From NCBI GenBank assembly GCA_903884815.1, contig CAISGE010000002.1, forward strand, positions 109,955-173,954: a stretch of DNA of 64,000 bases, read 5' to 3'. A program made the translations under genes and the position numbers. Every line of letters starts with the position of its first letter. Position 1 is the first letter of the stretch. Positions 3,379 through 41,234 of the stretch are shown one piece after another. The notes under the pieces were generated by a model that worked only from the letters and a program-made list of their open reading frames with translations, ran no database searches and was not told where the DNA came from. Origin of the DNA: Candidatus Omnitrophota bacterium. Lineage in GTDB: Bacteria > Omnitrophota > Omnitrophia > Omnitrophales > Aquincolibacteriaceae.

Positions 3379-5661
3379 TTAGCTGGCGAAAGTCTTGACG
3401 GGTTTGGGCTGCACGAGCGGGAGGACGAAAGAGAAGGTGCTGCCCTTCTTGAATTCCGATTCAATTTCGATCTGGCCGTGATGCTGTTCTACGATCTTCT
3501 TCGAGATCGCAAGTCCCAACCCCGTGCCGCCCGGCGCGACGAGCTTGGCCGATTCCAGCTGGCCGAATTTCCGAAAGAGCTTCGGGATATCTTTTTGCTG
3601 GACGCCGATCCCCGTGTCTTTGACCGAGACCTTGATACCCTCCGGGGTTGCGGCTGTGACGAGCGTGATCTCGCCTTGAAGCGTAAATTTGATGGAATTC
3701 TGGATAAGATTGGTCAGTACCTGGAGGATCTTGTCGCGGTCGAGTTCGGGATGAGGGAGGTGGGGTTGGAGCTCCAGCTTTAAAATAAGATTTTTGTTTT
3801 CCACCAGCGGTCGCATGGCGAGGGCGGCTTCTTCGAGGAGCTTATTAACATTCTCCTTTTTCATGTGGAACTCGATCACGCCGGCTTCCATTTTGTGAAA
3901 GGCGAGAACATCGTTGACGAGCCGCACCAGCCGGTCGACGCAGCGCTTGGAGATATTGAGCACTTCTTTTTGCTCGGCCGTGATCTCGCCTGTCAGCCCC
4001 TCAAGGATGATGCTCAGACCTTCCTTAACAGAGTGAATTGGCGTGCGGAGCTCATGGGAAACCATTTGGATGAGCTCTGCCTTGATCTCAAGGGATTCTT
4101 TGTATTTGTGCTCGGTTACGTCCTTGGCGAAACAGTAAAATCCGTCAAAGTTCCCGTCTTTGTCCAGAGCCCGCACAATACAAACATACTGGTGGAAGAT
4201 CGAGCCGTCCTTCCGGAGGGCTTTCACCTCGGTTTCGGCTTTGCCCGAGCGCTTCATTTCTTCGAACGCCATCCCAGCTTTGCCCGCATCCTCCGGGCAG
4301 ATCGTCGTCATACGATTCAGGCCAACCATTTCGTCCGGGGTGTAACCCATCATGGCGGCGTAGGCCTTATTGACGCTCAGGATCTTTTTCTGGGGGTCCA
4401 TGCGGGCGATGCCGTCAAGCGCGTATTCCATCGCGATAGAAAAATCCCGAAGCTGCTTTTCGGACAGGATCCTTTCGGTGATATCCTCCGAGATACCGAG
4501 CAGGTAAGCGGGTTTTCCCTGAGCGTCAAGGATCGGGATTTTCTTCGTGTGGAGGATCCGCACGCCTTTTTTATTTGTGTGAATGGATTCTTCCCGGATC
4601 TCCAGAAGGGCTCCGCCGAGGAGCGTTTGCCGGTCTTTTTCCACGAAGGCGTCTGCCTCGGGCTTTGGAAAAAAGGAATAGTCGTTTTTCCCGATCAATT
4701 CTTCGCGTTTGTGTCCGACGAGCTCTTCGCCCGCGCGGTTGAAGCGTACAAAGCGCAGCTCGTTCGCCTCCTTGATAAAGACCATGTCGGGAATGTTCTC
4801 GATGATCGAATCCAGAAAGGAGTTCGTCTGACGCAGCTCCTTTTCGATACGGATTCTCTGGTCGATCTGCTCCCGCAGTTCCTCGTTTGAAAGTCCAAGT
4901 TGGCGCGATTTCTGCTCAAGCTCCGAGGTTCTTTCGGCGACCTTCAGCTCCAGGGCTTCATTCATGTGTTTGAATCCCTGAAGGTAGACCCCGAGCTTCT
5001 TAAGCGTTGGCAAGAACACAAGCGCGCCGATCAAGACGAGGCAAAAAAAGTTTAAAACAAAGAGTGCCCGTCCAAGATTTTGAAGCGCGAGGATCTGCAC
5101 GCCGTTGTCTTTCTGGAATTTCTTGATCGATGAGCGCAGTGTGCCAAGAAGGCGGGTGCTTTTCGCCTGGAAAGCTACAAGCTGAAGATTGTCCGCGTGG
5201 ACCCTGACCGGGGAGCTGACCAGGAACTTTTTTAATGACGAAACGTATTCTTCCAGTTCCAGGTTCAGCGGGGCGGAGGAGGAATAATAGAGTCTGCGGA
5301 GGACGTTGATCAGGTGGAGAGGGAGTTGTGTTTTCTCGGAAACAATATCGTTGGAGGTGGTGCTGAAGACCAACAGGGAATTGAGATCGTCGTGGACGCT
5401 TGCCCGCAGGTCGGCGCGTTCCTGGGGATCCATCGATTGCGCGTAGGCGATCGACAAAAAAGACGTTTTTTGGATAAGGCTGTACTGACCTTCCATGAAG
5501 CCGATGATCGCTGCGTCACGTTCCGCGTGGACGATTTGGTGATTCATCACGGAGAAGTTTCCGACCGCAAAACAAGCGAGGAAAATGAATGAGAAAAGGA
5601 ATTTCAGATTGGTCGCGAGGAGGACGGAATCGCGACGGGCTTTCACAGGTTTTTTTTCCAT
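3379..5661 (-). CDS. Sensor histidine kinase with an N-terminal two-TM periplasmic sensor region, two PAS domains, HisKA and HATPase_c.
   Basis: H-box (MVSHELRTPIHSV), a coiled-coil linker, PAS-like segments, and G-box residues near the C-terminus (GGTGLGLAISKKIVEQHHG). I preferred the ATG start at 5661 (MEKKPVKARR); the six-frame track extends to a TTG at 5685 that overlaps the upstream gene's stop. Confidence 0.8.
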   Translation of the reverse strand: MEKKPVKARRDSVLLATNLKFLFSFIFLACFAVGNFSVMNHQIVHAERDAAIIGFMEGQYSLIQKTSFLSIAYAQSMDPQERADLRASVHDDLNSLLVFSTTSNDIVSEKTQLPLHLINVLRRLYYSSSAPLNLELEEYVSSLKKFLVSSPVRVHADNLQLVAFQAKSTRLLGTLRSSIKKFQKDNGVQILALQNLGRALFVLNFFCLVLIGALVFLPTLKKLGVYLQGFKHMNEALELKVAERTSELEQKSRQLGLSNEELREQIDQRIRIEKELRQTNSFLDSIIENIPDMVFIKEANELRFVRFNRAGEELVGHKREELIGKNDYSFFPKPEADAFVEKDRQTLLGGALLEIREESIHTNKKGVRILHTKKIPILDAQGKPAYLLGISEDITERILSEKQLRDFSIAMEYALDGIARMDPQKKILSVNKAYAAMMGYTPDEMVGLNRMTTICPEDAGKAGMAFEEMKRSGKAETEVKALRKDGSIFHQYVCIVRALDKDGNFDGFYCFAKDVTEHKYKESLEIKAELIQMVSHELRTPIHSVKEGLSIILEGLTGEITAEQKEVLNISKRCVDRLVRLVNDVLAFHKMEAGVIEFHMKKENVNKLLEEAALAMRPLVENKNLILKLELQPHLPHPELDRDKILQVLTNLIQNSIKFTLQGEITLVTAATPEGIKVSVKDTGIGVQQKDIPKLFRKFGQLESAKLVAPGGTGLGLAISKKIVEQHHGQIEIESEFKKGSTFSFVLPLVQPKPVKTFAS

Positions 5662-5681: not shown

Positions 5682-7373
5682 TCAAGCGGGCATTCCGAGG
5701 TAGAATCCCTGGCCGTATTTTACGCCAAGCTCCTTAAGTTTGTCGAGGTCTTCTAAGGTCTCGATGCCTTCGGCTATCACTTCGGCGTTGAGGTCTGCCG
5801 CGATCTTGAGGGTGCGGCGCAGAGAACGTTCAATGTGAAGGTCCTGGGCGATCCCGCGTATGTATTTTTTATCCAGCTTGATCACGTCGGGCTCCAGCAA
5901 AATGAGACTTTCCAGACAGGTGTTCCCGAACCCCACGTCATCGACGGCGATCGAAATGCCATAACGTTTGAGCTCCTCGACAGGGCCGATCAGATGCGAG
6001 GGCTCACCGAGGATTTGCTGCTCGCTGATCTCAAGGCAGTAGCTTTGGGCCGGGCAATTCGTCACGAGTTTCTGGACAAGGTCCTCCACCGCAAGGTCAA
6101 TGATCGTGGCCGGAAAAAGGTTGATGTGCCGGTGCATGGCGGGAGGTAGAGAGGCCGAAGCCGAGACGCAGGAGCGGAAACAGTGATGATCGACCAAGGT
6201 CAGCATGTTGTTTTCCATTGCGAGCCGGAAAAATTCGTCGGGGGTGTGAACGCCGCTATTTTGAAGGCGCGAAAGGAATTCGTAGCCGATGATCGACAGG
6301 TTGTCCAGACGAAGGATCGGCTGTTTCACCGCGAAGAAATCCGTCCCCCGTCGCATGAGTTCGGTCATATGCCCCGCGTCGGCCCCCAGGATCAGCTCTT
6401 CCGCTTCGCCGGGCGTTTGATACGAAATTCGGTTTTTCCCTTCCTTCTTGCTTTGTCTCAGAAAGGGGTCGGAAATGGCCAGAAGATCATCGACGGAGGT
6501 CACGTGAGACGGCACGGAAGAAAGTCCAAAGCTGGCCGTGATGCGGAGGGACTCTTTGTCTGAAATGACGATGGTGGTGTTCGAAATCGCGAACCGGAGA
6601 CGCTCGGCTAGCTGAAGTCCTTCCTTCAGCGGTGTTTTCGGCAGAAGCAGGATGAACTCATCGCCGCCGATCCGCGCTACGTGATCGGAGATGCGCACCG
6701 AATCCCGGATCTTTTTCGCGGTCTCCTTCAGGAGAAGATCGCCGACGGGATGGCCCAGCGTATCATTGATCCGTTTCAAGTCGTCGATATCCAAAATAAG
6801 GACCATTAATCTTCCGCCCTCGCGGGTCAGGACCTGGGTTTCGCGGCGGAGGACTTGCTGGAGGCCGCGGCGGTTGTAAAGTTCGGTCAGGGGATCAAGA
6901 AGCGCCATTTTTTCAAGACGCAGATTGCTTTCGCGAAGGCGTCCGGTGACTGAAGCGAGCTTCTCTTTGATCCGGTGGCGGTCGATCGCGTGATGCAAAA
7001 TGCGGAGCAGGAGCCTCGAATTGATCTCGCCTTTGATCAGGTAGTCTTCCGCCCCTTTGCGGACAGCGTCGATCGCGAGGGTGTCGCTGTCCAGGCCGCT
7101 CATGATCACGATGGGAGTATGGCGCGCCTGGGCCCGGAGAGAAACAAAGGTCTGGATGCCGGAGGAGTCGGGGAGCATCAGGTCGAGCAGGATCAGGTCC
7201 CAGCCCGTTTCGGCGATGGCTTCCAGGGCTTGCCGCAGAGTGGGAACCCATGTGATATCGAGTGGGGGATTTGCCTCTTTGCTGAGGCGGATCTTCATGA
7301 TCTCCGCGAAATCCTGCTCGTCTTCGACGAGGAGTACCTTCCATCCGGGTTGCGTGAACTTTTCCTGGTCCAT
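5682..7373 (-). CDS. Response regulator with REC, GGDEF and EAL domains (c-di-GMP turnover).
   Basis: N-terminal REC (KVLLVEDEQDFAEIM...LILLDLMLPD). GGDEF motif (RIGGDEFILLL). EAL-type motifs (EFLSRL, DDVGFGNTCLESL). RBS AAGGGAG upstream. Its stop lies 20 nt from the kinase start, or overlaps it if the kinase uses the TTG start. Confidence 0.8.
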   Translation of the reverse strand: MDQEKFTQPGWKVLLVEDEQDFAEIMKIRLSKEANPPLDITWVPTLRQALEAIAETGWDLILLDLMLPDSSGIQTFVSLRAQARHTPIVIMSGLDSDTLAIDAVRKGAEDYLIKGEINSRLLLRILHHAIDRHRIKEKLASVTGRLRESNLRLEKMALLDPLTELYNRRGLQQVLRRETQVLTREGGRLMVLILDIDDLKRINDTLGHPVGDLLLKETAKKIRDSVRISDHVARIGGDEFILLLPKTPLKEGLQLAERLRFAISNTTIVISDKESLRITASFGLSSVPSHVTSVDDLLAISDPFLRQSKKEGKNRISYQTPGEAEELILGADAGHMTELMRRGTDFFAVKQPILRLDNLSIIGYEFLSRLQNSGVHTPDEFFRLAMENNMLTLVDHHCFRSCVSASASLPPAMHRHINLFPATIIDLAVEDLVQKLVTNCPAQSYCLEISEQQILGEPSHLIGPVEELKRYGISIAVDDVGFGNTCLESLILLEPDVIKLDKKYIRGIAQDLHIERSLRRTLKIAADLNAEVIAEGIETLEDLDKLKELGVKYGQGFYLGMPA

Positions 7374-8724: not shown

Positions 8725-9009
8725 ATGGCGAAGGCGAAAGCAAAAACGAAGGCAAAAGGAAAAGCAAACTCAGCGTTCATGAAACCGATGAAGATCAGCG
8801 AGAAACTCGCACCGGTGGTCGGCAAAGGTCCGATGCCCCGCAGCGAAGTCGTCAAGAAGCTCTGGGCCTACATCAAGAAGAATAAGCTCCAGGACACCAA
8901 GAACAAGCGCAACATCAATGCGGATGAGTCGCTCAAGGCCGTGTTCGCAGGCAAGAAGGTCGTCAATATGTTCGAGATGACCAAGCTCGTCAGCAAGCAT
9001 CTCTCTTAA
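8725..9009 (+). CDS. SWIB/MDM2 domain protein.
   Basis: Lysine-rich N-terminus followed by LAPVVGKGPMPRSEVVKKLWAYIKKNKLQDTKNKRNINADESLKAVFAGKKVVNMFEMTKLVSKHL, the canonical bacterial SWIB domain. RBS AAGGAGAAAG precedes the ATG at 8725. Confidence 0.7.
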   Translation: MAKAKAKTKAKGKANSAFMKPMKISEKLAPVVGKGPMPRSEVVKKLWAYIKKNKLQDTKNKRNINADESLKAVFAGKKVVNMFEMTKLVSKHLS

Positions 9010-9028
9010 GAAGCCCCTTTTTTCATTG

Positions 9029-9060
9029 CTCTATCCGCCGTCGTAAGGGGGCGGATAGAG
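9029..9060 (+). terminator. Perfect 11-bp GC-rich hairpin (CTCTATCCGCC-gtcgtaagg-GGCGGATAGAG) directly downstream of the SWIB gene. Putative terminator with no clear U-tract.
   Basis: Inverted repeat read from the sequence, 20 nt after the stop codon. Confidence 0.3.
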
Positions 9061-9329
9061 TCCGTGAAAATCCGGATTGAAAGGGATGGCCCTTCGCGGG
9101 CCATCCCGTTCTCCGAGGATCCTCTGCAAACGAAAACCCATTCCCTCTAACTTAGTAATTTCAGTGTTCGCATTCTGTTAATGTCAGGACCTTCCCCTCG
9201 GCGTTTCGGAAGAACCCTTATCTGAGGCGTGATCCGAAGTCCTCAAGCCGCTCCTTTCCACCGCCGTTCAAGTTTTTGCACCCATGCCATAAAGGGCGAC
9301 TTGGACGGCCCCAAGCCTTAAAGACATGT

Positions 9330-9357
9330 TATAGTTTCTATAGGTAGATGCCGAATC
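9330..9357 (+). promoter_or_regulatory. Weak sigma-28 (FliA)-like promoter candidate upstream of the pilin cluster: TATAGTTT-N12-GCCGAATC, versus the consensus TAAAGTTT-N11-GCCGATAA.
   Basis: Motif read from the sequence about 40 nt upstream of the first pilin ATG. The spacer is 1 nt longer than the consensus. Confidence 0.2.
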
Positions 9358-9397
9358 AATAGGCAACATAATCTTTTCACCTGAATGGGGGAAGGCC

Positions 9398-9862
9398 ATG
9401 AAAAACATGAGAAAAGGTTTCACGCTTGTAGAAGTACTGATTGTCGTTGTCATCATCGCTATTCTCGCCTCGCTTATTGTGCCGCGTATGCTCATGCAGA
9501 CCGAAAAGGCCAAAGCCGCCGAAGCTCTCCAGATGATAGGTGCTATCAAACGCGCTGCGGATAGGTACTACGATTTCCATGGAACTTATATTACCCCCAC
9601 TTACGAAATTTATGCGGACCCTGCAGGAGCTGCATCCGCAGAGGGTGATTGGGCGGATCTCGGCCTTGACGACAGCAATATCAGAAAAACAAAGTACTGG
9701 GCTTATAATTATTCTCCCGGGAATAACATCCTCGACGTGCAGACGCCCGATGGGGTAAAATTCGCAACTTACAATATGCAAACGGAGCTGTGGAGTTGCG
9801 ACGGGATTTTTTTTAAAGAGCTTAAAAATGCCGGTGGCAATGTGACCGGCCGCACGATTTAA
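9398..9862 (+). CDS. Type IV pilin or pseudopilin (prepilin-type N-terminal cleavage/methylation domain protein), paralog 1.
   Basis: Class III signal MKNMRKG|FTLVEVLIVVVIIAILASLIVPRM with Glu at +5. C-terminal Cys pair (WSCDG...). RBS GGGGGAAGG. Confidence 0.8.
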   Translation: MKNMRKGFTLVEVLIVVVIIAILASLIVPRMLMQTEKAKAAEALQMIGAIKRAADRYYDFHGTYITPTYEIYADPAGAASAEGDWADLGLDDSNIRKTKYWAYNYSPGNNILDVQTPDGVKFATYNMQTELWSCDGIFFKELKNAGGNVTGRTI

Positions 9863-9928
9863 AAGCAGAATAGAGTAGGTGGTGTGTTGAAAGGGAGCGC
9901 GGCCTATTTCACGCGGGAAAACAGGGTC

Positions 9929-10438
9929 ATGGAAAACACGAAAAAAGGATTTACGCTTGTTGAAGTGCTGATCGTTGTCGTCATTATTGCCATCCTCGCT
10001 TCGCTCATCGTGCCTCGCATGCTCATGCAGACCGAGAAAGCCAAAGCTGCCGAAGCCTTTCAGATGATGGGGGCCATCAAACGAGCAGCGGAAAGATATT
10101 ACGACTTTGCGGGAAGTTATAATGTTCCTTTTCAGGGAAGTATGATTTTTACGAGACCTGACGGGGGTGCGAATATTGGCGATTGGTCCGAACTTGGCCT
10201 CACAGGTATAGAGAAATCAAAGAATTGGTATTACATTTACCAAGGGACGGGCGCCAGTTACGCCATCATTGCCTATGATGACATAGCTTCCGAAAAACGC
10301 AAGGCGGAGATCCATTACGAGGGCTATGAAGATATCAATGAGGTAAGCTTTTGGGTTTGCGCAGGTACTTTTAAACCGATAGAACCTCCCGCGCCGGGAC
10401 ATGGTATGGAGACATCTGTGAAGGGCTGCACGATTTAA
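9929..10438 (+). CDS. Type IV pilin or pseudopilin, paralog 2.
   Basis: MENTKKG|FTLVEVLIVVVIIAILASLIVPRMLMQTEKAKAAEAFQMMGAIKRA, the same N-terminus as paralog 1. C-terminal Cys pair (WVCAG...KGCTI). The six-frame ORF begins further upstream at 9884. Confidence 0.75.
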   Translation: MENTKKGFTLVEVLIVVVIIAILASLIVPRMLMQTEKAKAAEAFQMMGAIKRAAERYYDFAGSYNVPFQGSMIFTRPDGGANIGDWSELGLTGIEKSKNWYYIYQGTGASYAIIAYDDIASEKRKAEIHYEGYEDINEVSFWVCAGTFKPIEPPAPGHGMETSVKGCTI

Positions 10439-10480
10439 AGATTAAGAAGGGAAACGGGTAGCGGCGAACGGGGAAAGCAT

Positions 10481-10942
10481 ATGAAAAATAGAAAAAAAGG
10501 ATTTACGCTTGTTGAAGTGCTGATCGTTGTCGTCATTATTGCCATCCTTGCATCGCTCATCGTGCCGCGTATGCTGATGCAGACCGAAAAAGCCAAAGCT
10601 GCCGAAGCCCTCCAGATGGTGGGTGCTATGAAAAGGGCCCTCGAGAGATACGTCGATATGTCTGCGACTCGTCCGCAGCTAGATCTGAATTCGGGCCACA
10701 GTTATGGGAATATAGAGACAACTGGCCATTGGTCAGATCTTGGGCTTCCACTCATGGACAAATCGCAATTCTGGAATTATTTTGCCTATGCGGATGACAC
10801 TATGTGGCAAGTCTCTGTTTATGACGCTGCGAGCGACTCAAAATACATAGTTTTCACCGAATACTACGGTCCACCTATTTCAGATATTTGGGGCTGCGAT
10901 GGGGTCCTTTTTAAGTCCGTGAATGGCGTTTGCACGGTTTAA
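10481..10942 (+). CDS. Type IV pilin or pseudopilin, paralog 3.
   Basis: MKNRKKG|FTLVEVLIVVVIIAILASLIVPRMLMQTEKAKAAEALQMVGAMKRA. The 5' 130 nt are nearly identical to paralog 2 at the DNA level. C-terminal Cys pair (WGCDG...GVCTV). Confidence 0.8.
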   Translation: MKNRKKGFTLVEVLIVVVIIAILASLIVPRMLMQTEKAKAAEALQMVGAMKRALERYVDMSATRPQLDLNSGHSYGNIETTGHWSDLGLPLMDKSQFWNYFAYADDTMWQVSVYDAASDSKYIVFTEYYGPPISDIWGCDGVLFKSVNGVCTV

Positions 10943-11021
10943 AAAGGGAATAGTCCGCTGCCTGAAAACCACCGTGTTTTCCGCTAGAATCCTACTGATT
11001 CTGAAACTCGCCCATGGATTT

Positions 11022-11066
11022 TATTCACACCACTGTCTGTCTAACGAACGATGCTGGATTGCCTCA
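11022..11066 (-). repeat. Pseudo-copy of the comM 3' end. The minus strand encodes EAIQHRSLDRQWCE-stop, versus the true comM terminus EAIQYRSLDRQWYG-stop. Att-like direct repeat bounding the ORF6N insertion.
   Basis: A direct repeat of roughly 45 nt at about 75% identity, sharing the 15-nt core ACCACTGTCTGTCTA, with comM 11621-11665. The stop codon is preserved at the equivalent position. Confidence 0.55.
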
Positions 11067-11070
11067 TGCG

Positions 11071-11592
11071 TTATGTCTGAAACCCAATCGGACCTTTGGG
11101 TTTTTTCGAAGTGGAAGCCGGTGGTTCGAGGAGTTCTTTGATGGCCTTGAATACAATCTGAAACTGATGGTCGTATTTTCTCTCCATCGCCTCGATTTTC
11201 TGTCGCAGCTCCTTGTTCCCCGCTAGCATTTCCCGTAATTGGGTAAATGTCCGCATTATCTGGATGTTGACTTGAATTGCTCGTTTGCTGTTAAGAACGC
11301 TGGAAAGCATTAGGATGCCATGCTCTGTGAACGCAAAAGGAGGCTTGCGTGTTCCTCCCCAACTTGTTCCGCCAAAATGGCGGGTCAAGTTTGTAAGCTC
11401 TTCTCTTGTAAGGACTAAGAGAAAGTCATCCGGAAAGCGTTCTGTGTTTCTGCGCACCTGGCGCTTGAGATGCTCGGTTTCGACTCCATAAAGTTCTGCC
11501 AAGCCTCTGTCGAACATGACCTTTTTTCCCCGAAGCAGGAAAATCTTGCTCTGAATTACTTCTTGCGGGACGAGAGCCTTTGATCCTGCCAT
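11071..11592 (-). CDS. ORF6N-domain protein (phage/Bro-N-like DNA-binding family).
   Basis: IFLLRGKKVMFDRGLAELYGVETEHLKRQVRRNTERFPDDFLLVLTREEL matches the ORF6N signature. Start at 11592 (MAGSK) with AAAGGA upstream. The six-frame ORF extends to 11628, overlapping the comM end. Confidence 0.7.
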   Translation of the reverse strand: MAGSKALVPQEVIQSKIFLLRGKKVMFDRGLAELYGVETEHLKRQVRRNTERFPDDFLLVLTREELTNLTRHFGGTSWGGTRKPPFAFTEHGILMLSSVLNSKRAIQVNIQIMRTFTQLREMLAGNKELRQKIEAMERKYDHQFQIVFKAIKELLEPPASTSKKPKGPIGFQT

Positions 11593-11620
11593 GGGTTTGT
11601 TTTCCTTTCTGATGTCACGG

Positions 11621-13138
11621 TTATCCATACCACTGTCTGTCTAGGCTGCGATATTGAATTGCCTCAGCAATATGCTCGCTTTGAATTTGTTCGCACCCCG
11701 CCAGATCACCGATTGTTCGGGCGATTTTGAGAATCTTATAATAAGCCCTCGCCGATAAATGGAGTTCCTTCATCGCCATTTCGATAAGCTTGCGGCCCTG
11801 CATGTCCGGCGTTGCGAATTCCTTGATGTCCCTGGGATTCATCTGGGAATTAGTTTTATAGGACCTCATGCGGTAGCGTGACCTTTGGATCGTTCGGCAC
11901 GCGCAAACTCTCTCCCGTATCACTGACGAACTTTCCGACGGTTCTTGACTCGTCAGCGTCTGGAACGATAAGGCCGGCACTTCAATATGAATATCGATCC
12001 TGTCGAGCACCGGCCCCGAGATCTTAGACTGATATTTATGGATTGCCCCTAGCGAGCACCGGCAGGTCTTGCGTGTATCGCCGAGATAACCACACGGACA
12101 GGGATTCATCGCCGCGACTAATAAAAAATGGGCAGGGAAGGTGATCTGGTTCTTGGCTCTCGAGATCGTGATGTAGCCGTCCTCCAAGGGACCGCGCAAG
12201 GTTTCCAGTGCGTCGCGACGGAATTCCGGAAGTTCATCCAGGAAAAGGACGCCGCCGTGGGAAAGTGACATTTCTCCGGGGCGGGGAGAGGTGCCGCCTC
12301 CGGCGAGAGCAATGGCGGACGCGGTGTAATGGGGCGAGCGGAAGGGGCGCTCGGCGATTAGTCCGCTTCCTTGAGGGATCGACCCCGCCACACTGTGGAT
12401 CTTGGTGATCTCCAGGGCCTCCTCGGTTGTCATGGGAGGGAGGAGGGTCGGGATTCGCTTGGCGAGCATCGTCTTTCCGCTTCCGGGAGGGCCGATGAAA
12501 AGGATCTTGTGATCTCCCGAGACGGCAATCTCCAGGGCGCGCTTAGCGGCCTGCTGGCCGCGCACCTCGGAGAAATCAAGAAGATGGGAGGACGGGTTCA
12601 TGTTCTTATAGGGAATATTCCGGAGAGGCTCGACGCTGCGCTCTCCGGTCAGAAATTCTACGGTTTCACGGAGATTCTTGACGGGATAGACGGAGACGTC
12701 TTTGGCTAATGCCGCTTCCCCCCCGTTTTCGGCTGGGAGGACAAACGAGGATTCCCGAAAGCCCGAAGTGATGGCAATAACGCCTTTCAGAGGGCGCAAG
12801 GCCCCGTCGAGGGCCAGTTCTCCGATAAAGATATGTTTTGCCAGCTTTTCAGGGGGGATGATCCCGTGGCAGGCCAGAATTCCCAAGGCGATAGGGAAGT
12901 CAAAAGAAGCGCCTTCCTTCTTGATGTCCGCTGGGGCGAGACTGATGGTGATCTTATCCGGCGGGATATGGAAACCGCTATTTTTGAGGGCGGTGCGAAC
13001 CCTTTCCCGGGCCTCCTTGATGCTGGTGTCGGCGAGGCCCACCAGGATTAGCTGGGGAAGCCCGTCGCTGATATCGACCTCGATATCCACCGGAAAGGCG
13101 TGGATGCCAATGGCGAAGGCGCTTTTGATGCGTATCAT
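11621..13138 (-). CDS. comM: YifB/ComM family Mg-chelatase-like AAA+ ATPase (competence protein ComM).
   Basis: MIRIKSAFAIGIHAFPVDIEVDISDGLPQLILVGL... ChlI-like N-terminus, a Walker A (GPPGSGKT), an AAA+ core and a C-terminal Mg-chelatase subunit ChlI domain. The ATG at 13138 matches the family N-terminus. Confidence 0.85.
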   Translation of the reverse strand: MIRIKSAFAIGIHAFPVDIEVDISDGLPQLILVGLADTSIKEARERVRTALKNSGFHIPPDKITISLAPADIKKEGASFDFPIALGILACHGIIPPEKLAKHIFIGELALDGALRPLKGVIAITSGFRESSFVLPAENGGEAALAKDVSVYPVKNLRETVEFLTGERSVEPLRNIPYKNMNPSSHLLDFSEVRGQQAAKRALEIAVSGDHKILFIGPPGSGKTMLAKRIPTLLPPMTTEEALEITKIHSVAGSIPQGSGLIAERPFRSPHYTASAIALAGGGTSPRPGEMSLSHGGVLFLDELPEFRRDALETLRGPLEDGYITISRAKNQITFPAHFLLVAAMNPCPCGYLGDTRKTCRCSLGAIHKYQSKISGPVLDRIDIHIEVPALSFQTLTSQEPSESSSVIRERVCACRTIQRSRYRMRSYKTNSQMNPRDIKEFATPDMQGRKLIEMAMKELHLSARAYYKILKIARTIGDLAGCEQIQSEHIAEAIQYRSLDRQWYG

Positions 13139-13316
13139 GGGATCTCCCTTCGTTATAACCCCGAAACAAACACGCTTGCTTTTTAAATAAGCTAAACTTA
13201 TAATGACGCACTTCATGAGGCCGTTGCTCACTGGAAGTGCTTCTTTATCATATTATTAATGATAATAATTCATAAACAAGAAAGGTGTCAACCTTTTTCC
13301 TGTTCACAAATCCCTT

Positions 13317-13781
13317 ATGATCGATGTCTTGAATCCTCCATTTCATAGTGAAAGAGCCTACGCCGCCGTCTTATTGAGCTGGTTCGTCGCCCAGGCTCTT
13401 AAGGTGATACTGGGAGGAGCGAGTCACAAAAAATTTGACGTCCGTTGGCTTTTTGACACGGGCGGGATGCCCAGCGCGCACTCCGCGACCGTGGCTAGTC
13501 TCGCCACTGTGGTGGGGCTCTATTATGGCTTCAACAGCATTCCTGCCTTGATGGGATTGATCATTTGCCTTATCACGATGTTCGATGCCGCAGGCGTCCG
13601 CCGGCATTTGGGCACGCAGGGGAAGATCCTCAATGAGATCGTCGACGAGTTTTACGCGAAGGGCGCGGTCCCGGAGAAGCGTCTCAAGGAACTTTTGGGA
13701 CACACGCCTGTCGAAGTGATCGCCGGCGCGGCTTTAGGAATTTTCATGGCCTATCTTTTTTGTGCATGGACCGTCTCATGA
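13317..13781 (+). CDS. Divergent PAP2 (acid phosphatase/vanadium haloperoxidase-related, YuiD-like) membrane protein.
   Basis: GGMPSAHSATVASLATVVG and MFDAAGVRRHLGTQGKILNEIV motifs typical of DUF212/divergent PAP2. Confidence 0.6.
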   Translation: MIDVLNPPFHSERAYAAVLLSWFVAQALKVILGGASHKKFDVRWLFDTGGMPSAHSATVASLATVVGLYYGFNSIPALMGLIICLITMFDAAGVRRHLGTQGKILNEIVDEFYAKGAVPEKRLKELLGHTPVEVIAGAALGIFMAYLFCAWTVS

Positions 13782-14716
13782 AAAAAAACATCCTTCTGAA
13801 GACCCTGATCGTCGCAATATTTCTTGCGCCTATGATGGCCTATGGGGCCGAGACGCCTGTCAAAGAGGCGGTGGACCACGAGGCTCGCGTGACGGAATCT
13901 CCCAAGAGCGCACCGGGAGGCGCGCTGCAGAAAAACGACCACGATGCTTTTAACGAAAAGCATATGGTGGTCCCTGAATCCCGGCCCGAACCTGTCGCGA
14001 CGGTTTCCGGAGCGGAAAAGAAAAAAAGTCAGGCCGCGGCCGTGAAAAAGGAGAACGATGTTTGGAAGACCTCTTCCAACGTTCCTTCCAGGAAAAAAGC
14101 GCCGGACGTTTCAGCGAAGACCGAGACGGTTTCAAAGCTCAACACGGATGAGATGCAGAAGCGGTGGAAAGCCTTGTTTTCCAAGGACGCTTCCCCCGAC
14201 AGCATTTTCTGCGTTGTAAAGCCCGGCGACAGTCTTTATGTTCTCGCCCAAAAAAACCACACGACAGTCGAGTTCATCAAAAAGATCAACCATCTCACGA
14301 GTGACGACATTTATATCGGGAAAAAGCTCAAAATCCACACCGCTCCTTTTTCGATCGTGGTGGATAAGGCGAAGAACACCCTCGTGCTTTATTCTGGGGA
14401 TCTGCCGGTGAAAAAATATTCCGTAGCAACCGGGAAAAAGAACTGCACGCCGGTTGGCGAGTTCAAGATCACGGACAAACTTACGAATCCGACTTGGTTT
14501 AAGACCGGCGCGATTCTTCCCCCGGGGAGTCCGGAGAATGCGCTCGGGACCCGGTGGATGGGCTTGGACAAGCCGTCCTACGGCATTCATGGAACGATCG
14601 AGCCCAAGAGCATCGGCACGCAGGCCTCCGAAGGCTGCATCCGGATGCTGAACGAAGAGGTCGAAGAACTTTACAGCATTGTGCCGGTAGGTACCAAGGT
14701 CACCATCCAGGATTAA
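13778..14716 (+). CDS. LysM domain plus L,D-transpeptidase (YkuD) protein with a signal peptide.
   Basis: Signal MKKNILLKTLIVAIFLAPMMAYGAE. LysM (VKPGDSLYVLAQKNHTTVEFIKKINHL). L,D-transpeptidase catalytic block (YGIHGT...SEGCIRM). An ATGA overlap with the upstream stop. Confidence 0.75.
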   Translation: MKKNILLKTLIVAIFLAPMMAYGAETPVKEAVDHEARVTESPKSAPGGALQKNDHDAFNEKHMVVPESRPEPVATVSGAEKKKSQAAAVKKENDVWKTSSNVPSRKKAPDVSAKTETVSKLNTDEMQKRWKALFSKDASPDSIFCVVKPGDSLYVLAQKNHTTVEFIKKINHLTSDDIYIGKKLKIHTAPFSIVVDKAKNTLVLYSGDLPVKKYSVATGKKNCTPVGEFKITDKLTNPTWFKTGAILPPGSPENALGTRWMGLDKPSYGIHGTIEPKSIGTQASEGCIRMLNEEVEELYSIVPVGTKVTIQD

Positions 14717-14737
14717 TCAAAAGAGGCCTTCTTTTCT

Positions 14738-15790: not shown

Positions 15791-15917
15791 CACGCTGCGC
15801 ACGAAGTTTAAAGTGGATTTATGGTGGAAGAGCGTGTTGCGTTCCTATCTGCGAATCCCGAGCGGTACACGCTAAAAAATACGGCAGTTTTTAAAGCGGA
15901 AAATTCCTCCCGACCCT

Positions 15918-17299: not shown

Positions 17300-18097
17300 G
17301 TGAAAAGGAGACCCCCCATGCACGAAGATGAGATCAAGATGTGGAAGAAGTTCAAGAGAAGCAAGAGCCTTCCGTTGCGTGAAGAGATCGTGAAGAAATA
17401 TTTGTATCTCGTGAAGTATGTCGCGGGCCGGGTGGCGATCGGACTTCCGTCGAGCGTCGAGTTCAACGACCTCGTCAGCTACGGGATCCTGGGGCTTTTT
17501 GACGCGATCAATAAATATGACGTCTCCCAGGGCAACAAGTTCGAGACCTATGCCGTCTCCCGCATTCGCGGCTCGATCATGGACGAACTTCGCAAACTCG
17601 ACTGGGCGCCCCGGCTTCTGCGCAAGCGGGCGCGGGAGATCGACCGGAAATGCAAAGAGCTCGAAGAGAAGAACGGCCGCTTGGCCACGGATGATGAAGT
17701 GGCGAAGGCCCTGAAGATCTCCACCGACGATTTGAACTCGATCTACAGCGATCTCAATTCCACGACCTTTCTGTCGCTGGATGAGGTGTGGCAGAACGAT
17801 GACGGCAATAAGCCTATCTCGCGTCTTCAGACGATCGAAGATTCCCTGATCACGGACCAGTTCAATTATGTCCACCAGAACGAAGTGAAGGAGCTGTTGG
17901 CCGAGGCGATCGATCAGCTTCCCGAAAAGGAAAAGCTCGTGATCGTGCTCTACTATTACGAGAATCTGACGCTTCGCGAGATCGGCGAGATCCTGGATGT
18001 TTCCGAGTCCCGAGTTTGCCAGATCCACACGAAAGTCGTCACGCGCCTGCGCGGTCATCTGATGCGTCGCGCCGGTCACTTGACCATGGAAGCCTAA
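17300..18097 (+). CDS. fliA: RNA polymerase sigma factor, FliA/WhiG (sigma-28) subfamily.
   Basis: Region 2 (FNDLVSYGILGLFDAINKYD...FETYAVSRIRGSIMDELRKLDW), region 3 and region 4 (LTLREIGEILDVSESRVCQIHTKVVTRLR). Confidence 0.8.
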   Translation: MKRRPPMHEDEIKMWKKFKRSKSLPLREEIVKKYLYLVKYVAGRVAIGLPSSVEFNDLVSYGILGLFDAINKYDVSQGNKFETYAVSRIRGSIMDELRKLDWAPRLLRKRAREIDRKCKELEEKNGRLATDDEVAKALKISTDDLNSIYSDLNSTTFLSLDEVWQNDDGNKPISRLQTIEDSLITDQFNYVHQNEVKELLAEAIDQLPEKEKLVIVLYYYENLTLREIGEILDVSESRVCQIHTKVVTRLRGHLMRRAGHLTMEA

Positions 18098-18313: not shown

Positions 18314-18565
18314 ATGCAAAGCGTGGCAGAATCTAAAAGACCCAAATTCAGGATCCAGGCTCCGAGCGAGAGAACGATCGCGCAAAAAGATCGCGAGGAG
18401 GTCCAGAAATATCTTCGCCTTATCCCCACCGAAGCGGAGCCCAATCTGGGGCGCGTCCGCGAGATCAAAGAAGAGATCAAAAAAGGCACTTACCTGACGC
18501 ATGAGATGATCGAAGCCGCTGCGATGCAGCTGGCGCTCAGGCTCCTAAGGAAAGAAAAAGATTAG
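18314..18565 (+). CDS. flgM: Anti-sigma-28 factor FlgM.
   Basis: The C-terminal RVREIKEEIKKGTYLTHEMIEAAAMQLALRLL matches the FlgM sigma-28-binding region. Lies directly downstream of fliA. Confidence 0.6.
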   Translation: MQSVAESKRPKFRIQAPSERTIAQKDREEVQKYLRLIPTEAEPNLGRVREIKEEIKKGTYLTHEMIEAAAMQLALRLLRKEKD

Positions 18566-37938: not shown

Positions 37939-38077
37939 GTGGGGGACAGACCGGGCGCGTTTCGCTCCATATAGCTTCTAGGTAATATGGCCGAAGTTAA
38001 TAAGGCTTGGCTTTCTTGAGGCTTAGAGGATACAAACGGAAGCGCATATCCATTCAAAAAATGGCGGGTTTGATAAA

Positions 38078-39622
38078 GTGAAAAAGTTTTTTAACGCAAT
38101 CACCGGCTGGATGACTGAAGAAACATTCAGACGCAGCGATCTGTTCGTGCTCGCGCTCTACGGGCTGCTGATCGGGTTCGGGATCCGGTATCACGAGCCG
38201 TGGAGCGACGAGGCGCTGCCCTGGATCATCGCGCGGGATACCGATCTGCGCGGCTTCCTTGGGATGATCCTTCAGAATTGGGACAGGCATCCGGGGCTTT
38301 TCCACGTCCTTCTGCTCCCCTTCGTGAAGCTCGGCTTTCCTTATTTTACCCAGGCCATTCTGAACGCTCTCCTGGCGCTTCTGGCGGCTTTCCTTTTTCT
38401 GACGAAGGCGCCCTTTCCACGGATCTTCCGGTATCTTTTTCTGTTCACCTATTACATGCTCTTTGAATATTCCGTGGTCGTTCGTCCCTACATGCTCACC
38501 GTCGTCCTTCTGTTCATTCTGGCGGTTTTTTATCCCAAGCGCGAGAGCCGGCCGATCACCTACGCGCTTCTGATCACCCTGTTGTTTCACGCGGACTATA
38601 TGAGTTTTGGATTGGGAGTGGGATTGACGGCAGCTTATCTGGTGGAATATGGACGCCTGTTTAAAACGAAGCCACGTTTGGCCGCGGCGTTCGCCTTGAT
38701 GGCGCTGAATGCGCTGTGGATCGGGTGGATGGCCCACGCGCTTCCGGCGGGGCACGGGGAATATGGCAATAAATGGGCGCCGGATATCCTGAACTTCGTG
38801 AAGCCCCTGGCAAACGCCTTTTTTCCGTTCTCGGATCTGGGCCGGCACGCGGCTTTCGCGTTCCCCACGGCCGTGATCGCCGGAAGCTATGTTTTGATCG
38901 CGACGTTCGTCTCTCTGATCCGGCGTCGGATACCCGCCTTGATCCTGGGCGTTTCCTTGGCGTACCTTTTTACGGTTTTTACGTTTTTCCACGGAGGCGA
39001 TTACCGCAATCACGGTTTTATTTTACTCAGCGTTCTCTTTGCTCTCTGGATCGCCCGGGATTCCGCCGGGGAGGCTCCGGCCGCTCCCGGGACCGGAAGA
39101 AGTGCCCGGCCCTGGTTCGGTCAACTTGCGATTGCGATCATGAGCCTTTGCATTCTCCTGGGCCTTCAGAATCTCAGTTTTGTTTATCGCCTGGAATATC
39201 ACCTTCCTTTCTCGGGGAGCCGGGATATGGCCCGGGTGATCGCGGGGATCGAAAAAAAGAACCACATTTTCGAACAGGGATTTGTGATCGTTTCACCGCA
39301 CAAGAATTCCGTGGGGCTGATGCCTTATTTGCCCGGCGTGAGGTTCTGGAATCCCTGCACGGGCAATTACGCGGAATACTACCGGTTGACGCGGGAAACG
39401 TCCCGGTGTAATGATCTTCCCGAGGCGGCGGCCGTTCAGATTGCGAAGGGTTATTTTAGGGATCTAAGCCGTGTCCTGTTCCTTTTCCGGAATCCCTTGC
39501 CGGCAATGACAGATCCGGATTATGAATATCAAGAACTCTACCGGGTCAGTCCCGCTTTCGGACACTGGCAGGAAACGTTTTCTCTTTACCGGGCGCTGCC
39601 CAAGGTTTCTCCGGCGAAATGA
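38078..39622 (+). CDS. Multi-pass membrane protein, putatively a GT-C fold glycosyltransferase (ArnT/PMT_2-like), paralog 1.
   Basis: About 12 predicted TM helices. An early periplasmic loop with YHEPWSDEALPW (DE motif). GTG start with a weak RBS. Confidence 0.4.
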   Translation: MKKFFNAITGWMTEETFRRSDLFVLALYGLLIGFGIRYHEPWSDEALPWIIARDTDLRGFLGMILQNWDRHPGLFHVLLLPFVKLGFPYFTQAILNALLALLAAFLFLTKAPFPRIFRYLFLFTYYMLFEYSVVVRPYMLTVVLLFILAVFYPKRESRPITYALLITLLFHADYMSFGLGVGLTAAYLVEYGRLFKTKPRLAAAFALMALNALWIGWMAHALPAGHGEYGNKWAPDILNFVKPLANAFFPFSDLGRHAAFAFPTAVIAGSYVLIATFVSLIRRRIPALILGVSLAYLFTVFTFFHGGDYRNHGFILLSVLFALWIARDSAGEAPAAPGTGRSARPWFGQLAIAIMSLCILLGLQNLSFVYRLEYHLPFSGSRDMARVIAGIEKKNHIFEQGFVIVSPHKNSVGLMPYLPGVRFWNPCTGNYAEYYRLTRETSRCNDLPEAAAVQIAKGYFRDLSRVLFLFRNPLPAMTDPDYEYQELYRVSPAFGHWQETFSLYRALPKVSPAK

Positions 39623-39647
39623 TGTACGTGGCGAGAAGGAACGATTG

Positions 39648-41234
39648 ATGCAAATAACTTTTAAAAGTAGCCTGGAGCTTGTCCTGTCTTTACCGAAGAA
39701 GGTCATGGGCTGGCTGCTCGACGAAAAATTCCGCAGAACGGACCTCCTGGTGCTGGCTGTTTATGGCGTGATCGTCAGCTTCGGGATCTGGCACCACGAG
39801 CCCTGGGGCGACGAGGCTTATCCCTGGATCATTGCCCGGGACGCGGACTGGCGGACCTTTCTGGAGATCCTCTTCACGAATCGGGACCGGCACCCCGGAC
39901 TTTTCTATCTCGTGATCCTTCCTTGGGTCAAGCTGGGCTTTCCGTATATCGCCCAGGGGATTTTGAATCTCCTCTTTGCGCTTGGAGCGGCGTTTCTCTG
40001 GCTCAAGCGCGCGCCTTTTCCCCGCGTGTTCCGCTACCTTTTCCTGTTCTCCTTTTACATGCTTTACGAGTACGCCGTGATCACGCGGAATTATATGATG
40101 TCGCTTCTGATCCTTTTTGCTATCGCGGCCTTGTATCCCAAGCGAACGGAGCGCCCGATGGTTTACGCGATTCTGGTCGCCCTTCTTTTGCACGCGGATT
40201 TTATGTGCCTGGGCCTCGGGCTCGGATTGACAGCCGTCTTTGCCTGGGAGCACCGGAACAAATTTGCCGGAAACCGTCCGCTCATCATCTCCATGACCTT
40301 GATGACATTCTCAGCCCTGCTCGTCCTCTGGATCGCACACGCGCTTCCTCTGGACCATCCCGCACGCGGCCGGCATCTCGCATTTTCCGTGAGCCAATGC
40401 CTCGTTCCCGTCAGCAAGGCGTTCCTCCCGTTTTTTAACGACAGTCAAACTCCGGGATTGCCTCGGGTGGCGATGCTTGCCAGCTTCACGGCATTTTTTC
40501 TTTCGTGGATCGCGCTCTTGCGAAAGCCCGCGCCTCTTGTGATCTTGGGGTGCGCGCTCGCGCCGCTTTTTTACATCTTTAATTTCGTGGATGTCGGGGA
40601 TTACCGCCACTACGGATTCATTCTGGTCAGTATTATTTTCACGTTTTGGATCGCGGCAAGTTATCCCGCGCCGCTGGGGACTGCGCCCACGGTTTGGCCC
40701 CGTCGCACGCGAGCCGCAGTGATCGCGCTCATGTGCGCGTTCTTTTTTGTGGGCCTCCGTGCGGTCAACTTTATTTATATGATGGAATACAAGTTGCCCT
40801 TTTCGGGGTCGCGTGACGCCGCGGACGCTGTTAAATTATTGGAGAGGCGCTACGGCCTTTTGAGTCAGGGTTTTACGGTCGTGGCCAAGAACGCGAACGC
40901 CATCAGTCTCATGCCGTATTTGCCCGGGGTGAAGTTTTGGAACCCTTGCACGAGAAGCTTTGCCCGTTACTATTACAATAATAAGGCGCTGGCCGCCTGC
41001 ACCGAGGTTCCTTCTTATGAAGCGGTCCTGCGGACGAAAGCTGCTTGGGGAGACATTAGCAAGGCGATCTTCCTCTTCGATGCTCCGCTTCCGGTCCCGG
41101 AGGACGCTGATTACAAGTATGAGAACTTTTTCACTTCCCGGAAAGGGTTTGGCTATACGTACGAGACTTTCTATTTCTATCGCGCGATCCCTAAAGGGGC
41201 TCCGGTATCTCCCGCGGGACAGGCGGCGCGCTAA
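39648..41234 (+). CDS. Paralogous GT-C-like multi-pass membrane protein, paralog 2.
   Basis: Same architecture and motifs (WHHEPWGDEAYPWIIARD..., C-terminal MPYLPGVKFWNPCT...). Confidence 0.4.
   Translation: MQITFKSSLELVLSLPKKVMGWLLDEKFRRTDLLVLAVYGVIVSFGIWHHEPWGDEAYPWIIARDADWRTFLEILFTNRDRHPGLFYLVILPWVKLGFPYIAQGILNLLFALGAAFLWLKRAPFPRVFRYLFLFSFYMLYEYAVITRNYMMSLLILFAIAALYPKRTERPMVYAILVALLLHADFMCLGLGLGLTAVFAWEHRNKFAGNRPLIISMTLMTFSALLVLWIAHALPLDHPARGRHLAFSVSQCLVPVSKAFLPFFNDSQTPGLPRVAMLASFTAFFLSWIALLRKPAPLVILGCALAPLFYIFNFVDVGDYRHYGFILVSIIFTFWIAASYPAPLGTAPTVWPRRTRAAVIALMCAFFFVGLRAVNFIYMMEYKLPFSGSRDAADAVKLLERRYGLLSQGFTVVAKNANAISLMPYLPGVKFWNPCTRSFARYYYNNKALAACTEVPSYEAVLRTKAAWGDISKAIFLFDAPLPVPEDADYKYENFFTSRKGFGYTYETFYFYRAIPKGAPVSPAGQAAR

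Follow-up and report, generated by a model that had tools for sequence, protein, structure and literature searches.

What does a bacterium gain from keeping, side by side, three pilin genes that begin alike and end differently, with no gene for pilus assembly close by? This question is raised by positions 9398 to 10942 of a 64-kb stretch of DNA from a Candidatus Omnitrophota bacterium (the window, by which we mean this whole stretch), where three tandem prepilin genes, here named pil1, pil2, and pil3, are found (Table 1). Bacteria of the phylum Omnitrophota are uncultured and for the most part ultra-small, and they are suspected to live on other cells; as a means of attachment, type IV pili are the one most widely reported among them, and type IVa pilus (T4aP) genes occur in nearly all of their classes (PMC10066038). 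Our analysis of the window and of related loci leads us to consider it rather probable that the three genes belong to a dispersed set of interchangeable, major-type type IV pilins placed under one alternative-sigma regulon. Three lines of evidence carry this reading: a constant assembly end kept by selection at the protein level, the occurrence of the family at many loci of what appears to be one genome, and a promoter-like element common to nearly all of these loci.

Three complete prepilin genes of type IVa character

The initial annotation had recognized three tandem prepilin genes with a class III signal, and both observations hold. The genes are complete open reading frames (ORFs) arranged head to tail on the plus strand, with spacers of 66 and 42 nucleotides (nt), and all three products score above the curated cutoffs of PF07963 (N_methyl; 33.3 to 37.6 bits versus 21.2) and TIGR02532 (32.6 to 33.0 bits versus 16.3). 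Six-frame translation of the window yields exactly these three prepilin motifs. Each leader consists of 7 residues ending in Gly and is followed by FTLVEVLIVVVIIAILASLIVP, and the mature proteins of 146 to 162 amino acids (aa) display the type IVa (T4a) pattern, i.e., a short basic leader, F+1, E+5, a hydrophobic alpha-1N segment, P22, and a mature start of FTLVEV. Gene callers differ on the start of pil2 (P0015, 184 aa; P0123, 169 aa); ATG 9929 is most likely the correct one, and the upstream GTG 9884, which would add 15 residues, is unlikely. A simple scan detected no terminator-like hairpin in either spacer, and the region from 8900 to 11700 has no match to an Rfam family, so that no known riboswitch is present in the leader. 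Exact copies of the three genes occur on 24 to 33 contigs from lake metagenomes (pil1 is identical to P0008, which is on 27 contigs), and the population is abundant in stratified-lake samples.

Two further observations concern the trio itself. The pil2-pil3 spacer (10439 to 10480) and the one that separates the paralogues P0017 and P0012 (9958 to 10000 of locus L089) agree at about 80% of positions, the common pattern being …TTTAAAxAxTAAxAAGGGxAACGGGTAxCGxCxAACGGGGAAxGxATATG, unlike the coding 5' ends beside these spacers, which are near synonymous saturation. Possibly, therefore, something functional resides in the spacer, be it an internal start, a processing site, or a translation signal. 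We also considered and rejected a role as a conductive "e-pilin": aromatic residues make up 12 to 14% of the mature proteins, but their aromatic-free gaps of 36 to 49 residues exceed those allowed by the criteria reported for such pilins.

The best-scoring NCBIfam model for the trio is that of GspG (TIGR01710), and the genes could accordingly be read as pseudopilins of the type II secretion system (T2SS), GspG-like paralogues of a type that has expanded in relatives from the Planctomycetes-Verrucomicrobia-Chlamydiae (PVC) group, which would form a short periplasmic pseudopilus or a secretion accessory. The lower-ranked homologue matches do include proteins annotated as GspG, and in related operons (see below) the ATPase is GspE-like and bears an MshEN domain, the platform protein is GspF-like, and PilT was not seen. 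However, the GspG score of 47.5 bits is far below the cutoff of 88.85, and the match of pil1 and pil3 covers only residues 6 to 57-58, a stretch of 52 to 53 residues at the N terminus, with no match to the T2SSG domain PF08334 anywhere in the trio. Moreover, the C-terminal Cys pair, a presumed disulfide of the sort usual in T4a pilins, is retained in the family except in pil1; the related operons have PilM_2 and PilO rather than GspC/L/M and GspH-K, and the Omnitrophota systems have been named T4aP in the literature (PMC10066038). Taken together, these points render the pseudopilin reading unlikely.

A minor-pilin set, one of the two readings offered at the outset, finds less favor still. It would make the trio a priming set, with a tip or initiation complex formed by its products and the major subunit encoded elsewhere; tandem small pilin genes away from the machinery are indeed reminiscent of some minor-pilin operons, and the related machinery operons carry pilins of their own. 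Known minor pilins, however, differ in size, N terminus, and fold family, whereas the trio has one invariant alpha-1 helix and one fold, and at least 11 copies of the family exist. The minor-subunit models GspH (28 to 29 versus 80 bits) and PilV (14 to 16 versus 52) match the N terminus only and far below their cutoffs, and the GspI, GspJ, GspK, and ComGD-F models are also far below theirs; no minor-pilin or pseudopilin model reaches its cutoff. We hold this alternative to be quite improbable. Judged from their sequences, the three products are subunits of type IVa style that resemble major pilins and bear a globular domain peculiar to the family.

One invariant N-terminal module, divergent globular domains

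The trio had been described as having an identical 45-aa N terminus and C-terminal parts unrelated in sequence, and both descriptions require correction. The invariant block runs from K6 to A43 (38 aa, or 37 from G7), positions 44, 47, and 50 being variable, and it takes in the site of prepilin cleavage, the helix that anchors the protein in the membrane, and the initial part of alpha-1. In pairwise comparisons of nine paralogues, the nucleotide identity of this constant module is 0.75 to 0.95, against 0.79 expected with synonymous sites randomized. The third-codon identity has a mean of 0.51 and lies between 0.32 and 0.68 in all pairs but one; the saturation expectation, with synonymous sites randomized under this genome's codon usage, is 0.425. 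Because third-codon identity is thus near saturation, the module is kept by purifying selection at the protein level and not by continuing homogenization. The sole outlier is the pil2/pil3 pair with 0.84, which, together with their longest exact DNA run of 56 nt, points to a recent gene-conversion tract between these neighbors and indicates that, among the paralogues compared, recent conversion is limited to them. Their near-identity at the DNA level, previously put at about 130 nt, stands for the 111 nt of G7 to A43 (94.6%) but declines to 89.5% over 153 nt, and pil1 is only about 82% identical to either gene over the constant module.

The C-terminal halves of the trio, with 27 to 32% identity, can be aligned on common residues (W85, LGL88-90, W101, Y103, W132, C134, G136, F139, and K140), which form the motifs W-x2-LGL, W-x-Y, and W-x-C-x-G-x2-FK, followed by a C-terminal G-C-T-[IV]. 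Each of the three globular domains is nearer to that of a distant paralogue (35 to 47%) than to those of its tandem neighbors, so that the trio is not a recent local amplification; across the family, the identity among these domains, each about 100 aa long, is down to roughly 30 to 45%. A C-terminal Cys pair had been claimed for all three proteins. It is present in pil2 and pil3, but pil1 has one Cys only. In an alignment of 37 family members, the first Cys (C144 in pil2) is invariant and the second (C167 in pil2) is found in 36; the penultimate Cys of pil1 is replaced by Arg (CGC for TGC), a change unique among the 37 members and the same in every recorded strain variant. With these amendments, the other reading offered at the outset, a pilin-variation set, fits well: the paralogues are constant at the end used for assembly and vary in their globular parts.

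Structure prediction of the C-terminal domains, proposed as a check in the initial annotation, was run on pil2. The AlphaFold2 model generated from the family alignment (pLDDT 92) has a helix (residues 10 to 61), a short loop region, and a four-stranded antiparallel sheet (strands 101 to 106, 110 to 116, 127 to 133, and 141 to 145), and this predicted arrangement is the pilin topology, but the model gave no significant Foldseek match (see below). In PDB sequences, the family profile found matches along the alpha-1 helix only, in GspG and in T4a pilins such as Geobacter PilA, Neisseria PilE, Pseudomonas PilA, and Thermus PilA4/5. With the C-terminal 112 residues of pil2 as the query against 1.84 billion representative proteins, 8 matches were recovered at E ≤ 1e-3, by which measure the globular domain is rare. 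In one protein, P0300 (1,952 aa), 15 separate stretches match residues 35 to 71 of this query (E = 3.7e-12), so that a giant protein may contain, in repeated form, a short motif known from the globular domain of the pilins.

A dispersed, lineage-restricted family

Protein searches recovered about 40 full-length relatives with 42 to 67% identity, and the few that are named come from Candidatus Omnitrophota. Several of them have contig counts as high as those of the trio and long contigs in common. Tetranucleotide correlations to the window are 0.96 to 0.97 for the loci L001, L088, L089, L090, and L096 and, in short stretches, 0.95 for L093 and 0.92 for L094, as compared to 0.95 to 0.98 for the window's own thirds and 0.27 to 0.93 for other Omnitrophota loci. 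Eight family genes lie on four contigs of a single JGI sample. From these data we conclude that at least 11 full-length paralogues, along with truncated ones, appear to be present in one genome, and the sequences portray the family as lineage-restricted Omnitrophota pilins that occur as singletons, pairs, and one trio (Table 1). Two pattern scans are to be read within their limits. That of metagenome contigs returned 5 stretches and missed a known matching contig; it under-samples and is unfit for paralogue counts. That of genome contigs used GFTL[VI]EVLI and VVVIIAILA, which are too generic, and among the matches listed only N-terminal look-alikes from other phyla were seen; its by-product was L029, a locus with a related pilus operon.

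Two of the loci have features of their own. L001 contains, at 13674 to 15913 on the plus strand, a second, more diverged tandem pilin subfamily. Its three genes, with a 75-aa ORF interspersed among them, encode proteins of 165 to 173 aa whose globular parts are rich in Ser and have a Cys pair of their own, and two of the three genes have a weaker version of the family promoter. In L090, a 75-aa MshEN-only protein (9667 to 9894, minus strand) is encoded between the two pilin genes, and a receiver-GGDEF-MshEN protein (10636 to 12141, minus strand) adjoins them. As MshEN is a cyclic di-GMP (c-di-GMP)-binding domain, these genes provide a hint of c-di-GMP control at this pilin locus.

A common promoter and a candidate sigma factor

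A promoter-like element is present before the first pilin gene in 10 of the 11 loci examined, with its TATAG 66 to 71 nt from the start codon. The consensus is TGcTATAGTTT-N12-G(a/c)CGAAgcAATA (TATAGTTT-N12-G(a/c)CGAAgc), with a C-rich CCCCAA further upstream. The core TATAGYT-N13-GNCGA occurs twice in the window (0.03 expected; none of 100 shuffles reaches 2), and its exact matches in 97 fetched loci all stand before family pilin genes; the one exception is the second site of the window, which is considered below. A position weight matrix built from ten sites detected three further sites in loci of the same genome, of which two precede two of the diverged L001 pilins and the third belongs to L096. 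In tandem arrays, the genes that follow the first one (pil2, pil3, P0012, and P0002) are without the motif, which suggests that the arrays are operons. No convincing sigma-54 sites (GG-N10-GC) were found upstream of any of the paralogues. In L096, an IS256-family transposase gene (3768 to 5063, plus strand; NF033543, 288 bits) lies between the promoter (5191 to 5219, minus strand) and the pilin gene starting near 3633 (minus strand); this insertion presumably uncouples the paralogue from its promoter in this population.

The two blocks of the element resemble those of sigma-28 promoters, for which a -35 element of TCTAAAG and a -10 element of GCCGATAA have been published (PMC12784957). The comparison was made with the pattern TAAAG(TTT)-N11/12-GCCGATAA. 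Against TAAAGTTT-N12-GCCGATAA, the P0033 and P0020 copies match at 14 of 16 positions and that of pil1 at 12, the overall range being 11 to 14 of 16 with a 12-nt spacer. We put the chance that the pilin promoter is of the sigma-28 type at about even, for reasons given below. The window encodes a FliA/WhiG-family sigma factor with the Pfam Sigma70 regions r2, r3, and r4 (WhiG equivalog model, 327 versus a cutoff of 343), and the proximity of this gene to the trio, along with the sigma-28-like blocks, makes it probable that the family forms an alternative-sigma regulon with this factor as the candidate regulator of the pilin promoters. The 83-aa ORF that follows could possibly encode a FlgM-like anti-sigma factor, given its subthreshold FlgM match (Table 1); in a strain variant (L003), it has 5 single-nucleotide polymorphisms within 43 nt (18382 to 18424). 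WhiG/FliA-driven type IV pilus genes are known in Actinomycetota, namely, in Rubrobacter and Actinoplanes (PMC12871210), and the Omnitrophota survey paper makes no mention of flagella.

Assembly machinery in related genomes

That PilB, PilC, and PilD are not encoded in the window, as had been stated, was upheld by Pfam scans of its larger ORFs and by precomputed Pfam assignments for its first 20 kb; the scans of the larger ORFs likewise detected no PilM-Q or Gsp genes, and no Peptidase_A24 domain was seen in any fetched locus. A search with a relative's PilB yielded the candidates P0158 and P0195, the P0158 locus having a tetranucleotide correlation to the window of only 0.90. Assembly operons were found elsewhere: in L029, from an Omnitrophota metagenome-assembled genome of fairly similar composition, PilM, PilO, an intervening gene, a secretin, PilB (MshEN-T2SSE), and PilC are followed by three pilins and a response regulator, and L091 has the same operon. 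Correlations of 0.90 to 0.93 suggest that these operons are from other species. Their pilins and the family described here have a motif in common, PR[MF]L-x3-EKA-x-[AV]AEA, which is consistent with the use of the same kind of machine.

Hybrid contigs and the case for recombination

A constant 5' module could also serve programmed pilin switching, in which recombination through the module moves globular bodies behind promoters or deletes copies. Three hybrid arrangements are suggestive of this: in L007, the 5' end of pil2 is joined to the body of pil3, with pil2 deleted; in P0122, the leader of P0002 is joined to the body of pil1, with genes of both loci flanking; and in P0005, the leader of pil3 is joined to the body of the L096 paralogue. 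The flanking genes of each hybrid contig fit both parental loci, the hybrid partners share the longest exact runs (56, 29, and 41 nt), and the pil2/pil3 conversion tract is in line with such exchange. Yet each hybrid is a single contig of 1.3 to 1.9 kb, as opposed to 24 to 39 contigs with the canonical arrangement. Base-by-base comparison of L007 with the window revealed 0 mismatches on either side of its crossover, which falls inside the 56-nt exact repeat. Genuine homologous recombination would leave such a pattern, but it is equally typical of a de Bruijn-graph chimera, and exact runs of at least 29 nt are, the 56-nt run excepted, about as frequent as chance. Nor was any recombinase, invertible element, G4-type initiator, or notable inverted repeat found. 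It is likely, in our judgment, that the hybrid contigs are assembly artifacts rather than products of real recombination, and programmed switching is a rather unlikely explanation of the family.

A glycosyltransferase-like pair behind the second promoter core

The second core of the window precedes two tandem genes for polytopic membrane proteins. They have no sequence match in Pfam or PDB and belong to an unannotated family found mostly in Omnitrophota. An AlphaFold2 model of the first protein (38078 to 39622; pLDDT 92, pTM 0.91) has only GT-C glycosyltransferases, namely, PglB, AftA, ArnT, STT3, and EmbA/B, as consistent top Foldseek neighbors (probability 0.98 to 1.0, E = 1.4e-3 to 6e-2). 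H39, W42, D44, and E45 are invariant in these proteins, with D44/E45 in the first loop. Both gene products are thus predicted to adopt the multi-helix GT-C glycosyltransferase fold, including the acidic residues that characterize its first external loop.

Genomic neighborhood of the trio

The genes around the trio are listed in Table 1. The adjacent comM gene had been taken as a sign of a DNA uptake pilus. A comM/yifB gene is indeed within 700 nt of the pilins; many bacteria use type IV pili for DNA uptake, and three SNase-family nuclease genes lie 12 to 20 kb from the trio, so that a competence pilus set acting with ComM could be envisaged. However, comM is convergent, on the opposite strand and behind an ORF6N insertion, and it is absent from all five other pilin loci with neighbors examined; this arrangement and distribution provide no support for a functional link with the pilins. 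The ComGC model (NF040999) scores 34 to 35 bits against a cutoff of 75, those of ComGD, ComGE, and ComGF are below their cutoffs as well, and, to our knowledge, YifB/ComM is near-universal, occurring also in bacteria not known to be competent. We regard the competence reading as very improbable.

The ORF6N gene is bracketed by a 46-nt direct repeat (11021 to 11066 and 11621 to 11666; 78% identical), both copies of which encode the ComM C terminus, EAIQYRSLDRQWYG and the relic EAIQHRSLDRQWCE, each ending in a stop codon. Hence, the ORF6N gene represents an insertion of roughly 600 bp at the 3' end of comM; from the sequence, it looks as if the insertion supplied a new end to the gene and is a minimal mobile element or remnant at a classic integration hot spot. 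ORF6N was rejected as a conserved pilin neighbor: it is present in only 2 of the 6 loci with neighbors examined, the L001 copy is without the flanking repeat, and we treat the association as coincidental. Farther away, a repeated module occupies 23051 to 33000, in a stretch of lower GC content with strongly positive GC skew (24 to 36 kb); in addition to SNase-family and radical-SAM genes, it includes several ORFs without a family match. The window also encodes two giant proteins, and, according to recent preprints, giant proteins of Omnitrophota tend to adjoin secretion or pilus genes (10.64898/2026.06.07.730766).

Table 1 Features of the window, with family loci found elsewhere (positions refer to the window)
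Feature	Position	Strand	Description
pil1	9398..9862	+	Prepilin, 154 aa; leader MKNMRKG; mature protein 147 aa; single Cys, C134
pil2	9929..10438	+	Prepilin, 169 aa; leader MENTKKG; Cys pair C144/C167; longest C-terminal insertions among the trio
pil3	10481..10942	+	Prepilin, 153 aa; leader MKNRKKG; Cys pair C135/C151
Constant module, G7 to A43 (GFTLVEVLIVVVIIAILASLIVPRMLMQTEKAKAAEA)	pil1 9416..9526; pil2 9947-10057; pil3 10499-10609	+	0 to 2 aa differences among nine paralogues, pairwise
Pilin-locus promoter (putative)	9326..9363	+	ATGTTATAGTTT-CTATAGGTAGAT-GCCGAATC-AATAGG; TATAG 68 nt before the pil1 ATG
Second promoter core	37966..38003 (exact core 37970-37994)	+	TATAGCTT-CTAGGTAATATG-GCCGAAGT-TAATAAGG; 108 nt before the gene pair
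Polytopic membrane protein, predicted GT-C fold	38078..39622	+	514 aa
Tandem paralogue of the GT-C-like protein	39645..41234	+	44% identical; start uncertain, ATG 39645 or ATG 39522
MerR-family gene	17036-17278	+	Start of a small cluster with the sigma gene and the 83-aa ORF
FliA/WhiG-family (sigma-28-type) sigma factor	17300..18097	+	TIGR02479, 277 bits versus 189.6; 6.4 kb downstream of the pilins
83-aa ORF	18314..18565	+	Directly after the sigma gene; PF04316 (FlgM), E = 0.016, 15.8 bits versus a cutoff of 25
Receiver-domain protein			Upstream of the trio, divergent
Receiver-GGDEF-EAL protein	5682-7373		Upstream of the trio, divergent
PAS histidine kinase			Upstream of the trio, divergent
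SWIB-domain gene			Upstream of the trio, same strand
End of giant fn3/cadherin/Big_9 protein	6-3134	+	4193 aa; about 6 kb upstream of the pilins
Giant ORF	49350-59435	+	3361 aa
ORF6N gene	11071-11628	-	Between pil3 and comM
YifB/ComM gene	11621-13231	-	TIGR00368, 591 bits
SNase-family nuclease genes	23051-23746; 25397-26356; 29341-30393		Third with a DUF1016 N-terminal domain
Radical-SAM genes	23743-24861; 31928-32989		
Locus L001			P0003 singleton; three more diverged pilins 3 kb off
Locus L088			P0010 singleton
Locus L089			P0017 and P0012 pair
Loci L090/L093			P0033 and P0020 pair
Locus L096			P0005-like gene and P0002 pair
Locus L094			P0038, truncated

A model of pilus surface variation and the points that weigh against it

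We propose the following scheme for a regulon of interchangeable major-type pilins. The trio would be transcribed as one unit from the promoter preceding pil1, with transcription of the pilins driven by the FliA/WhiG sigma factor and perhaps modulated by the receiver, GGDEF, EAL, and MshEN proteins encoded beside three of the loci. The paralogues would all be cleaved by a prepilin peptidase and would fit the same T4a-type assembly machine and filament core, and the two GT-C glycosyltransferases, as members of the same regulon, might glycosylate them. As one invariant assembly module is present in all paralogues, choosing or mixing them would alter the pilus surface with assembly left untouched, and such a change, brought about by differential expression, could serve adhesion or host range, or evasion. 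A bolder version, in which FliA/WhiG was recruited for a surface-variation regulon that combines a dozen or more pilin loci, GT-C decoration, and real recombination via the constant module, and by which a nanobacterium retargets its pilus to hosts, appears to us to have a small chance of being right.

Several points weigh against this scheme. PilB, PilC, PilD, and the secretin of this genome were not located, and pilins linked to assembly operons, as in L029 and L091, could be the true major pilins. The assignment of the paralogues to one genome is based on composition, sample co-occurrence, and similar contig counts rather than on a closed assembly. Bereft of the disulfide, pil1 may be an impaired, less stable, or specialized subunit. 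Foldseek searches of the pil2 model against PDB and BFVD gave no match at E ≤ 0.001 (Acinetobacter PilA appears at E of about 5), so that its fold class follows from secondary-structure topology alone. The E values of the GT-C model are just above 0.001, and these enzymes, as candidate pilin modifiers, are linked to the pilins only by the promoter core. In the promoter itself, the -35-like block has T where sigma-28 elements have A, the -10-like block matches at 5 of 8 positions in most copies, and the same bases make up a near-perfect extended -10 sigma-70 promoter, TGnTATAGT. The first block fits equally well a sigma-70 promoter with an extended -10, followed by a conserved leader or operator. 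The two alternatives imply different transcription starts, which would lie some 30 nt upstream of the ATG for a sigma-28 promoter (6 to 9 nt past GCCGAAGC) but some 55 nt upstream of it for a sigma-70 promoter (about 7 nt past TATAGT).

Notwithstanding these points, the regulon of interchangeable pilins gives a concrete model of how Omnitrophota could vary their attachment surface, and it provides targets for metatranscriptomics and metaproteomics of stratified lakes.

Comparison with known systems

Pilin genes in Streptococcus sanguinis, pilE1 and pilE2, are arranged in tandem, and their products co-assemble. This system (8pfb) and that of Thermus thermophilus PilA4/PilA5 (6xxd, 6xxe, and 8qqj), in which several major pilins are likewise served by one type IV machine, are the nearest parallels: their paralogous major-type pilins, all fully expressed, combine near-identical N-terminal helices with different globular parts, and the alpha-1 helix matches the family profile. 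Unlike in these systems with two pilins, there are at least 11 dispersed copies here, with globular domains that are far more diverged (about 30% identical), and the globular domain is without a sequence or Foldseek match to solved pilins; members of the Omnitrophota family may co-assemble.

The family also resembles the Neisseria pilE/pilS system in having a constant N-terminal and a variable C-terminal part with a disulfide-bounded region, and in a conversion event, which was detected once here (pil2/pil3). The pilS cassettes, however, are silent copies with neither the 5' constant part nor a promoter, whereas a start codon, a leader, and a Shine-Dalgarno-like sequence are present in the trio and in every full-length paralogue with DNA read, and 10 of the 11 loci have a promoter of their own. 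Silent-cassette antigenic variation of this type was accordingly rejected, there being no 5'-truncated, promoterless donors among these genes, and, unlike in Neisseria, no dedicated recombination initiator was found.

Prepilin-like families have expanded in the PVC group too, where the Planctomycetes DUF1559/PF07596, HX9DG, and Verru_Chthon cassette proteins comprise many paralogues with a GspG-like N terminus. Points of contact are one weak DUF1559 match among the homologues (P0120) and weak N-terminal matches to TIGR02596 and TIGR02599; unlike the PVC families, whose domain models do not recognize it, the Omnitrophota family is short (146 to 162 aa when mature), disulfide bonded, and T4a-like.

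Pilin glycosylation offers another parallel. In Pseudomonas aeruginosa, group IV pilins are glycosylated by TfpW, an arabinosyltransferase of the GT-C type; pilin O-oligosaccharyltransferases are known as well. Like TfpW, the enzymes predicted here are polytopic and of the GT-C fold, and their Foldseek neighbors include PglB and several arabinosyltransferases (AftA, AftB, and EmbA/B); unlike it, they are encoded 27 kb from the pilins and tied to them only by the promoter core, the likeness being one of predicted fold.

As regards regulation, the WhiG/FliA systems of Rubrobacter radiotolerans and Actinoplanes missouriensis likewise have a sigma-28-family factor outside a flagellar context, with predicted or confirmed sites before pilus genes (PMC12871210). 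c-di-GMP enzymes are encoded nearby, as they are here with the receiver-GGDEF-EAL protein of the window and the receiver-GGDEF-MshEN protein of L090. The differences are that the phylum is another one, that the putative sites precede many dispersed pilin genes and not one assembly cluster, and that RsiG has no known occurrence outside Actinomycetota. Seen against all these systems, several major pilins per machine, PVC prepilin-like expansions, alternative-sigma control of pili, and pilin glycosylation are already known in kind; what is new is this pilin family, the constant module kept by selection, and the promoter common to its loci along with a candidate sigma factor. The value of the locus thus resides in a new lineage and a clean example rather than in a new principle.

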